From positions 1 through 19,849 of the IMG/VR virus record IMGVR_UViG_2778261575_000007: 19,849 bases of DNA; one strand, 5' to 3'. This document shows, piece by piece, positions 12,001-15,000 of this stretch. The position numbers were made by a program. Within the stretch, counting starts at the first letter, position 1. Each line of letters starts with the position of its first letter. This stretch comes from a virus (lineage: Duplodnaviria; Heunggongvirae; Uroviricota; Caudoviricetes).

Positions 12001-15000
12001 ATCGTGATGCAAAAATCGATTAGTAATATTGCCCTACGTTGCTATCAATTATTAATACTTCTTGGAACTGGCACATTAACATATTTAATTATCGTTATTC
12101 TGCAATGGTTAGTCACTAAAACGGGATAATCCATTGTATTGAACTTATTAATTGGATATGAGTGCTGATAGGAAACCTATGACCATCACCGAAGCCGATA
12201 TGCTGGAGATGATCCGCAGCATTGCCGGAATCAAACAACCAGCAAGCAAAATTAACAGGTGTTCAGCGCCTGTTTCCGTTGTGCTGCAACAGGAACACCA
12301 CCAGCGGCGGGAAAACGAAAAGGCGTACCAATGGACGAAGCCAAACAAGTTACGGCGTTAATTAGGGATGCGGGCTGGGATAGCCCGCATTTTGCTCACA
12401 GCTTGTTATAAATTTTTCCAGCGAAGTCATGAACCGCCTGAGGAATATCCGACGGCGTACCTAGCATTGTTGGCGCATCGGAAACAAAGAACATGATCGC
12501 TTCTTTGATTTCTTCGAAAGATGGGGTAGGGGTAATGCGCTTGAGATTTGAAACAGCCCGTCGGAACTCCGCCGTATCCATTGGATGCCTGCTAAACCAC
12601 GTTGGACTAGAAGCCCAACATTTTACTGCTTCTTTCACCTTAGTGTTCATCATTTTTCCTTTTGCTTATTACCATACAAAGCATGTGGAAAGAGAAGATT
12701 AACATGGAAAATATGGGGTTGGTGAGCAAATGGTACTGGTAGCCCGTCGACATCTATCAGCATGATGATGTGAGGCCGTATCAGTGGCGGAAACCGAACA
12801 GGCTGCGACGGTGAGCGGGGCGTTATAGTAAGCCAACAGCCAAGCCAAACATTAAGCCTAAGGGTAGGGCTTTTTTGTGGCTGGTGGCGTAATGCCAACA
12901 TTGTTACATGATGTTTTGAGGTATTATCTGCATGTTCGTGGTGAGGAACCACCAGAACTGATGAGCTTTTGTTTATGCATGTACTGCATGAAAACTGTCC
13001 TATAAAGTGGGGGTAGGTGTGCTGAGGAGAACATTGTGAGCTACGCCAAATTAAATTGTGTCGGGGGTGAACAAGTTTCTTGATAGGTGTCAGTAGGCAC
13101 CTATAGTTATAGGCTTCTTCAATTTTGTGTGCACAATATTTTGTATTGATTGGGGATAGGGTTGCACGCAAAATTAAAAAATGTATATTTATTAACGTGT
13201 ATTTGATGATTTTTAAATAAAATATTTCTCTATGTTTATCATAAAAGGTTTTTTATGAGCGTGGCAATAAAAACAATGACACCAATGTCATATTCTATAA
13301 AAGTTGATGCGATTAAGAAAAGATTGTCATATTTTAGTGATGTTTCTTTTTTGAGAAATTTTTATGAACACTTCCAAAAAGTAAGGGATGTCGAGGTGGG
13401 TATTGTTTCCAATTTCCCTTGGTGTTGCTATCTGGCAATGAAATGGAAGTTTTGCATGAAGGAAAAAAAGCCTGCAAAAGAAATGAGTAAAAATGATTTT
13501 ATTGATATTATCAACTTAATCTATAACTTGCAACTAGAAGCATCTAATTTAATCGTTGATGATAAAGTTATGCTAAGCCTTAGACGAATGGTGATAAATC
13601 AGTTGCTTTATCAATCAACTGATAAATTTAATGCTAATTCATTAACAAGACAGTATATTTGGTATTGCTTGAATGATGAATCATATTATAAAGATAAGTT
13701 TTTAGAATGTACTGGTTTACATTTGGAAAGCTATTACAAAATGGCATGTTATTTTACCGCTATTTCATGTATTAATCCTGATGTAGAATCAGAGGTTATT
13801 CCATTTAAACACTTGATAATAAACTTGGTTCCGATATTTGGTCCGGAACAAGTGAAAAAATTTTTGGAATTAACATGCTTAAAAATTGATGGTGTAAGAG
13901 ATTTTATTGCCCCATATAAATTGGATAAAAACATTACCGCTGAGTATTATGAAGATACACCATTCCTCAGTAAACCAATGTTTTTAGATGGCGATGGTGT
14001 AGTGATATTATGCAAAAGAATCATGAAGTCAGGGTTTGTCAACCTAGTTCCAGAATTGTTCAAGCAGGTCTATAAGGAATCTTATAAAGAAAAATTTGGT
14101 AAGACGATGGAACTTTATATTTCTCGCTTTCTTGATAAGTACAATTATAACTTTAAGACTGAAAGGGAGGTTAAGAAGATTTATAGTGATAATGCAATAA
14201 AAAATTGCAAGTCCGTAGATTTTGTTATTTCAGAGGGAGATTCAATAGTTTATATTGACTCGAAGGCAATAGAGCCTGCAAAGTTCGTTAAAACATCTAA
14301 AAATGCTCAGTTGCTAAAGGAAAGGTTGAATAAGAGTTTTATTAAAGGGATTTATCAAGGTCAGGAATGTGCTTTTAACTTAAATAAAATAGAGATGAGA
14401 AAACCATCTTCGAAAGATTCAATGTTAATTGTGGTGCATCGGGATCATCATATATCAAATGCAATGGTTGTGCAGGATTTTATTAACCCTGATTTATCAA
14501 CTGAGTTATCTGAAAAATATCATAGTATCCCCATTGATCTAAAAAGAATTTACTATATAACAATTGATGAGTTCGAATTATTACTTATGATGTGTAAACA
14601 GAAAGAACTATCTATTAATGAGTTTATTGATATGTGTGTGGAAAAAGATTCATTCCCTCATACTCAGAAGTCTAATCTAAGCATGCACATATATGAATTT
14701 GCACCAGAGGGTATTGATGATGATCAATTGATTGTAAAAGGAAGAGACTTACTGATTGATGATGTTATTGAAAATATGAAAGAGAGTGCATCAAAATGGT
14801 CTGGGAAAGTTGATATGTATCTTAAAATAAAAGATTATATTTTTAATTGGTAATTAAGCAAGGGTGTTATTATCAACACCCTTGCTCATAGTCTTACAAT
14901 ATTAAATGTTGTGTTTTTTATTTATATATTTTATTGCCCATCAATCTATTAATTCATCTCGTTGTTTGAGATAGGTTGAGCATTTGTATTTTTTTATCAA

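Follow-up and report, generated by a model that had tools for sequence, protein, structure and literature searches.

GAPS1 is a single-protein defence system from a GMT (gamma-mobile-trio) island of Vibrio parahaemolyticus, published in 2023-24 (Mahata et al., bioRxiv 10.1101/2023.03.28.534373). The Vibrio protein carries a PD-(D/E)xK domain in its C-terminal half, and its protection against T7 is lost with the substitution D313A or K328A. T7 phages that escape from GAPS1 carry substitutions in their major capsid protein, Gp10, and co-expression of Gp10 with GAPS1 leads to growth arrest with viability kept. The same study reported that the GAPS1 family is widespread beyond GMT islands, that three Escherichia coli homologues, each cloned alone, protect against coliphages (its Fig. 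6a), and that strain ZH142-A is sensitised by deletion of its native GAPS1 homologue (bioRxiv 10.1101/2023.03.28.534373). Our literature search found no later mechanistic paper on GAPS1. Here, we analysed a stretch of 19,849 nucleotides (positions 1 to 19,849 of the IMG/VR virus record IMGVR_UViG_2778261575_000007; this whole stretch is called the window below), in which a genomic island carries an AT-rich gene for a 532-aa protein as its last gene. Its sequence identifies this gene as an intact E. coli member of the GapS1 (GAPS1) family, which is already known, named and tested, and we refer to the gene as gapS1. The gene and the parts of its product lie at the following positions (AF2, AlphaFold2; pLDDT, predicted local distance difference test score):

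13255-14853 (+): gapS1 coding sequence, 532 aa counting the ATG, with the TAA stop codon at 14851-14853 (from the list of open reading frames, ORFs, and translation)
13288-13974 (+): all-helical domain at the N-terminus, aa ~12-240 (helices as predicted by AF2, with pLDDT mostly >85)
14071-14604 (+): PD-(D/E)xK nuclease domain, aa ~273-450
14110-14112 (+): codon of E286, the invariant acidic residue in the helix preceding the catalytic strands (E in 32 of 32 homologues)
14215-14265 (+): catalytic motif V321-K337, VDFVISEGDSIVYIDSK, containing D322 and D335-S-K337
14689-14850 (+): C-terminal helical extension, aa 479-532, beyond the NCBIfam GapS1 profile, which ends at aa 478

The protein matched the NCBIfam (release 20) model NF047931, antiphage_GapS1, with a score of 440.8 bits (E 5.8e-132) against a cut-off of 320 bits, and its residues 20-478 were aligned with the entire profile (1-455 of 455). 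An identical public sequence, WP_089631401.1, is recorded as 'GapS1 family protein [Escherichia coli]' and belongs to a cluster of 271 sequences at 90% identity. Among 5426 complete E. coli genomes, gapS1 was found in six, with a nucleotide identity of at least 99.2%, and RefSeq annotates it as gapS1 in four of these six carriers. In addition, EGQ2075554.1 from E. coli, which is effectively the same gene, has been cloned alone and protects against diverse coliphages (bioRxiv 10.1101/2023.03.28.534373). The likeness to this construct (Supplementary Table S3, Mahata et al.) was measured over its first 380 nt, and 379 of the 380 positions were identical; the sole difference in the first 126 aa is M11V, and most E. 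coli alleles have V11. The window allele is also 98-99% identical to other members of its cluster. Over the 380 nt compared, the gene thus appears to match an already tested gene to within about 1%.

A preliminary description of this DNA had pointed out a 532-aa AT-rich ORF with a nuclease-like motif, and such a frame is indeed present at 13255-14853 (+), with VDFVISEGDSIVYIDSK at residues 321-337. It is the longest ORF of the cargo region, and its GC content is 0.306, compared with 0.479 for positions 1-11450 of the window and 0.510 for the primase gene. A 1.6-kb ORF in DNA of 31% GC with 45 full-length homologues is far beyond chance. The same description had called the protein unrecognised and could name no family for it; this has to be corrected in view of the NF047931 match, the RefSeq gapS1 label and the near-identical allele that has already been tested with phages. 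In contrast, its proposal of a single-gene anti-phage system agrees with the GapS1 family being an experimentally shown single-protein defence. The system is therefore already known and not new: it has been published, it has a curated NCBIfam model and a RefSeq gapS1 label, and a near-identical allele has already been challenged with a panel of phages. The value of the case lies partly in calibration, as a reading of the sequence alone had rightly inferred a single-gene PD-(D/E)xK defence in the cargo slot of a satellite. The novelty that remains concerns questions at the level of the family, namely the nuclease substrate, the activation step and the variable C-terminal tail.

Among the other libraries, Pfam gave no match above its cut-off (the best was TPD, PF14811, at E 1.3e-3), and PHROGs gave a single match, phrog_14259, a family of unknown function. 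Sequence searches of the PDB, using either the protein alone or a profile of 32 sequences as the query, returned only chance matches to Kalirin and neurocalcin (E >0.2), and the BFVD library of viral folds returned no match at E <= 0.001. We also noted a gapS1 orthologue in E. coli 537-20 (NZ_CP091534.1, 3871215-3872812) that is 1598 bp long, not 1599 bp; its annotation is split into two pieces, and the name 'orthopoxvirus A36R protein' is given to one of them. This copy is probably frameshifted, and the A36R name is probably spurious.

The active site was analyzed in an alignment of 32 homologues with identities down to 25%. D322 and K337 are conserved in all 32 of them, and position 335 is D in 28 and E in four. 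We also rebuilt the active-site stretch of the Vibrio GAPS1 protein from the published D313A/K328A mutagenesis primers. The stretch of the prototype, DNKIQGKVV-D313-FLHQRNGTSIFIDA-K328-GVEPNQKI, aligned without gaps with NAIKNCKSV-D322-FVISEGDSIVYIDS-K337-AIEPAKFV of the window protein, so that D322 is equivalent to Vibrio D313 and K337 to Vibrio K328, with a shared D-x14-K spacing. By this conservation, E286, D322, D335 and K337 are assigned as the conserved E...D...(D/E)xK active site. The prototype, from V. parahaemolyticus RIMD 2210633 (WP_005477165.1), is likewise a single polypeptide of the NF047931 family. It is carried by the GMT island VPaI-6, whereas the window gene is carried by a tyrosine-integrase island at thrW that resembles phage-inducible chromosomal islands (PICIs); for the family, the GMT island is the context of discovery and not a defining feature.

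Next, the fold was predicted with AlphaFold2 from an alignment, which gave a pLDDT of 88.8 and a predicted template modelling score (pTM) of 0.88. In this model, residues 273-450 show an alpha-beta-beta-beta-alpha-beta order, in which D322 precedes the strand 323-327 and D335-x-K337 ends the strand 330-337. The top structure match in Foldseek was Upx (E 2.3e-5). The C-terminal half is thus predicted to adopt a restriction-endonuclease-like fold with the core of the PD-(D/E)xK superfamily. The preliminary description had suspected such a core, and this suspicion is supported by the conserved D322, D/E335 and K337, by the alignment of D322 and K337 with the mutated Vibrio residues, and by the predicted fold, which is restriction-endonuclease-like in AF2 and Foldseek around residues 320-345. 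Upx itself (PDB 9wuf; PMC13099982) is also a single-protein anti-phage nuclease, but it belongs to a different family, is 1212 aa long and has two PD-(D/E)xK domains. It has been reported as a 3'-5' single-stranded DNA exonuclease with a terminase-type (gp16) trigger (PMC13099982), and no sequence similarity to the window protein was detectable in the PDB sequence searches.

To see how the gene is placed outside E. coli, we compared the gapS1 loci of other hosts. The Klebsiella homologue is 3.5 kb away from a PD-T7-1 gene and has an Mrr-like gene in its vicinity; that of Pantoea vagans belongs to a P2-like prophage, where gpA and the portal gene flank it; and that of Salmonella closes a P4-like element, behind an alpha-type primase and Ogr/Delta. 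When the ORFs of the E. coli cassette were searched with tblastn against these Klebsiella, Pantoea and Salmonella loci, no match was found. More distant homologues, with 20-23% identity, occur in temperate phages of Klebsiella. Since the neighbours differ completely between hosts, gapS1 acts as a single gene, and it has no conserved partner gene.

Taken with the published data, we consider it very probable that the window gene is a stand-alone, one-polypeptide GapS1 anti-phage system, for which a late capsid-type trigger, activation of the nuclease and dormancy may be supposed. The T7 Gp10 trigger and the dormancy were observed with the Vibrio protein and would apply to the window allele by analogy. 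In this scheme, GapS1 would be auto-inhibited before infection, and its non-catalytic parts would sense a phage structural protein that is made late, probably the major capsid protein. Sensing would render the presumably Mg-dependent PD-(D/E)xK nuclease active, and a putative nucleic-acid target would be cleaved. The cell would then enter dormancy with the phage cycle incomplete, and the clone and the island carrying gapS1 would be protected. CapRel-SJ46 and Lit/Gol are also sensors of major capsid proteins, in which a late structural protein serves as the alarm and an effector shuts the cell down. Their effectors (a tRNA pyrophosphokinase and an EF-Tu protease) are unrelated to GapS1, and they are not known to be homologous to it.

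Several points weigh against this reading of the window allele. The data on capsid sensing and dormancy come from the Vibrio protein, which is 24-29% identical to the E. coli homologues, and the nuclease substrate was left open even for this prototype (bioRxiv 10.1101/2023.03.28.534373, Discussion). The phage protection data come from alleles other than that of the window (bioRxiv 10.1101/2023.03.28.534373). Two of the tested homologues, EJP5250929.1 and WP_152927281.1, fall in another subclade than the window gene, and the identity to the third, EGQ2075554.1, was measured over the first 380 nt. The window allele has M11, where most alleles have V11, and a few other substitutions, in keeping with its 98-99% identity to related alleles. 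The 532-aa protein had no match in PADLOC-DB v2.0.0 (2023); this database is likely older than the GAPS1 family, and its null result is no evidence against defence. Finally, the N-terminal domain is conserved like the nuclease domain (mean pairwise identity among homologues of 0.43 versus 0.42), unlike a fast-diversifying sensor.

The last point bears on the question of which part of the protein does the sensing. The N-terminal domain has no sequence match in Pfam or the PDB and is a candidate sensor or regulatory domain. The expectation that it is hypervariable, as a sensor would be, was rejected on the identities given above. Instead, the fastest-varying region among the homologues is aa 479-532, with a mean pairwise identity of 0.27. 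This C-terminal extension, which forms helices at 491-530 in the AF2 model, amounts to ~55 extra residues in the enterobacterial clade that lie outside the profile and distinguish this clade from the Vibrio prototype. Because the tail evolves fastest and lies outside the profile, whereas conservation is equal in the N-terminal domain and the nuclease, the tail is a candidate for specificity or gating. It could be this tail, and not the N-terminal domain, that sets which phage protein is sensed or that gates the active site, and a module resembling those of FokI and BspD6I could be switched on when the trigger templates the dimerisation of a silent monomer into a DNA cutter. We regard this proposal as tentative and rather unlikely. 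If true, the GapS1 family would gain a concrete mechanism as well as a determinant of its specificity.

We also considered other roles for the gene. A PD-(D/E)xK protein of this kind might be an orphan restriction or nicking endonuclease of type II or IIS, acting constitutively on incoming DNA without a phage-protein trigger or dormancy. However, the type IIS cleavage modules of N.BspD6I, the small subunit of R.BspD6I and FokI show only 9-15% sequence identity to the window protein, and these enzymes possess their own DNA-recognition domains and cognate methyltransferases, neither of which was found here. No methyltransferase occurs in the cassette or the island, yet the gene is intact and stably carried; no DNA-recognition domain was recognised in Pfam or in the PDB sequence searches; and in the prototype, a capsid protein serves as the activator and growth arrest occurs only in the presence of this trigger. 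An orphan endonuclease is thus very unlikely. It is also conceivable that gapS1 encodes a toxin and forms part of a module of two or three genes, in which orf194 (11545-12129) or a pair of minus-strand ORFs (12396-13171) serves as antitoxin, regulator or sensor. In fact, each of the three gapS1-positive E. coli islands that were examined has orf194 and the small ORFs beside gapS1, the neighbouring ORFs are low in GC like gapS1, and the minus-strand pair is just 83 bp away from it. These ORFs are nevertheless absent near gapS1 in the Klebsiella, Pantoea and Salmonella loci (tblastn), and the near-identical EGQ2075554.1 protected E. coli when cloned as a single gene. Moreover, a 69-aa frame and a 173-aa frame of this neighbourhood have counterparts in the sister island of E. 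coli strain DE17, which has no gapS1, so that these two frames belong to the island and not to the system. We therefore judge a multi-gene module to be extremely improbable.

Another explanation is that the protein serves the island rather than the host, as a factor that binds the capsid protein and interferes with a helper phage or hijacks its capsids. The island does contain the PICI core parts int, AlpA and primase (PMC10085698), the GAPS1 prototype senses a capsid protein, and the Salmonella homologue likewise resides in a satellite-like element. On the other hand, homologues are also carried by a complete P2-like prophage and by a defence locus that is no satellite, and the Vibrio prototype is located in a GMT island. 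Defence from a plasmid works in cells without the island, and the catalytic residues are required for it. Among the explanations considered, this one has the lowest probability, and a stand-alone GapS1 defence remains our preferred reading.

The expression signals around gapS1 were then inspected, and the following features were found:

13080-13107 (+): candidate promoter, the best sigma-70-like upstream site, TTGATA-16-TATAGT, matching at 10 of 12 positions (weak evidence)
13245-13248 (+): weak Shine-Dalgarno-like AAGG, read from the sequence, with the ATG 6 nt downstream
14857-14886 (+): perfect hairpin with a 12-bp stem and a 6-nt loop, AGCAAGGGTGTT/AACACCCTTGCT, 3 nt past the stop codon
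14895-14919 (+): second hairpin, weak and AT-rich, followed by TTTTTT (T6 at 14914-19)

Promoter-like sites were not enriched, with 13 found versus 12.9 expected from shuffled sequence. The fold of 14845-14915 has an energy of -23.6 kcal/mol (z = -5.4 versus shuffles). No T-run lies directly behind the 12-bp stem, and the T6 is present only past the second hairpin. A scan for consensus terminators gave zero calls on the plus strand, and the 12-bp hairpin went uncalled because it has no T-run. As a terminator, this hairpin is plausible but not canonical; both hairpins together are likely the transcription stop of gapS1. The preliminary description had credited the gene with its own ribosome-binding site and terminator hairpin. 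This holds in so far as the perfect 12-bp stem and an AAGG exist, but the ribosome-binding site is weak and the terminator is non-canonical.

The island that carries gapS1 lies at the tRNA-Thr gene (thrW), beside proA, and the window starts at its integrase. Its main features and those of the adjacent DNA are listed here:

1-1215: tyrosine integrase of the island
2287-2484: AlpA (PF05930, E 2.4e-19)
6131-7945: D5_N/Pox_D5 primase-helicase
11451-15110: low-GC (0.35) variable cassette, containing orf194, three small ORFs and gapS1
15631-15646 (+): attR-like copy of the tRNA-Thr 3' end, TCCTATTATC-GCACCA, aligned to tRNA-Thr/attL of K56-43-un; right boundary of the island
15801-16139: truncated second integrase, 93.5% identical to window positions 1-339
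16584-17108 (-): MarR regulator
17234 onwards (-): vat autotransporter toxin gene

Further island genes are AntA/AntB-like, ProQ/FinO-like and PerC genes and one with an Icd-like domain. It has been reported that the PICI core consists of an integrase, an AlpA/Stl-type regulator, a primase-replicase, a capsid-morphogenesis gene and a small terminase (PMC10085698). Three of these five parts (integrase, AlpA and primase) are present, and no capsid-morphogenesis gene was recognised among the island ORFs scanned. A 178-aa protein (10626-11162, +) has an N-terminal helix-turn-helix (HTH) and a weak match to phrog_57, a TerS/excisionase-like family (E 1.7e-6 over 45 aa). Its other weak matches (TIGR01764, E 2e-4; HTH_17, E 1.4e-4) indicate a likeness to a small terminase, Cox or an excisionase, and the protein could act as the excisionase of the island or as a factor that redirects packaging. 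Given these genes, the island is best described as a putative PICI-like integrative element. A P4-like satellite, which would have a psu-delta-sid operon together with alpA, epsilon and alpha, was also considered and rejected, because psu, sid and delta genes were not found: there was no Psu, Sid or Ogr/Delta in any ORF scanned, and apart from AlpA and the Icd-like domain there was only a primase of a different type.

Within the island, gapS1 is the last gene, at the attR end. In a comparison with E. coli strain DE17, identity was 99.86% for positions 1-11450 and 97.5% for 15111-19822, and the intervening DNA had no nucleotide match. The corresponding slot of DE17 (L003 13468-14960) holds DUF4747 and a 199-aa hypothetical protein, neither of which has a PADLOC or NCBIfam match, and the slot of E. 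coli strain B20123 (L008 13561-16659) holds a DNA methyltransferase, DUF262 and a MAE_28990-type HEPN-like nuclease. At its attR end, the thrW island therefore has a defence hotspot whose content can be swapped. This accords with the preliminary description, which had placed the cargo beside the island boundary: gapS1 stands next to attR in a variable slot that has other cargo in sister islands. The locus documents an exchange of defence cargo (GapS1; DUF4747 with an unknown gene; methyltransferase, DUF262 and HEPN) in the attR-proximal slot at thrW. Beyond attR, the truncated integrase and the vat gene follow. The PICI-like island is a tandem insertion that precedes the Vat island at thrW, a toxin island known from extraintestinal pathogenic E. 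coli, which is older and decayed here. Rfam gave no match for the whole window, and ARAGORN found no tRNA in the window.

Several other open frames of the window deserve mention. In the variable cassette, orf194 (+) encodes a low-GC protein of 194 aa that occurs in three of the three gapS1-carrying E. coli islands examined. It had no match in Pfam, NCBIfam, PADLOC or PHROGs, is absent from DE17, B20123 and the gapS1 loci of Klebsiella, Pantoea and Salmonella, and could be a second cargo gene. The minus-strand pair at 12396-13171 consists of two overlapping ORFs, of 173 aa and 85 aa, that diverge from gapS1 across the 83-bp gap, and neither had a family match in any library scanned. The 85-aa ORF is annotated as hypothetical, and the 173-aa ORF has a TTG start and is unannotated in RefSeq relatives. 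The latter shows 48% protein identity over 96 aa (E 9e-17) to DE17, where it stands beside different cargo, and it may represent a genuine gene beside the hotspot that has escaped annotation.

Outside the cassette, a 512-aa frame is open at 3355-4893 (+) and likewise in two sister islands, with an Icd-like domain only at aa 464-507 (NF033153, E 2.3e-21). Inside this frame, RefSeq annotates two minus-strand genes (a 66-aa gene and YlcI/YnfO) and only a partial Icd pseudogene. Against the UTAK-5 copy, its amino-acid identity (70%) is lower than its nucleotide identity (89-96%), and this difference suggests that the long frame upstream of Icd is non-coding. Downstream of the primase gene, the DNA at 7835-9193 has no counterpart in K56-43-un or UTAK-5. 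It includes a minus-strand ORF of 193 aa (8132-8713) with no family match, and the annotation of the same DNA in DE17 differs, consisting of small plus-strand ORFs, one of which is frameshifted.

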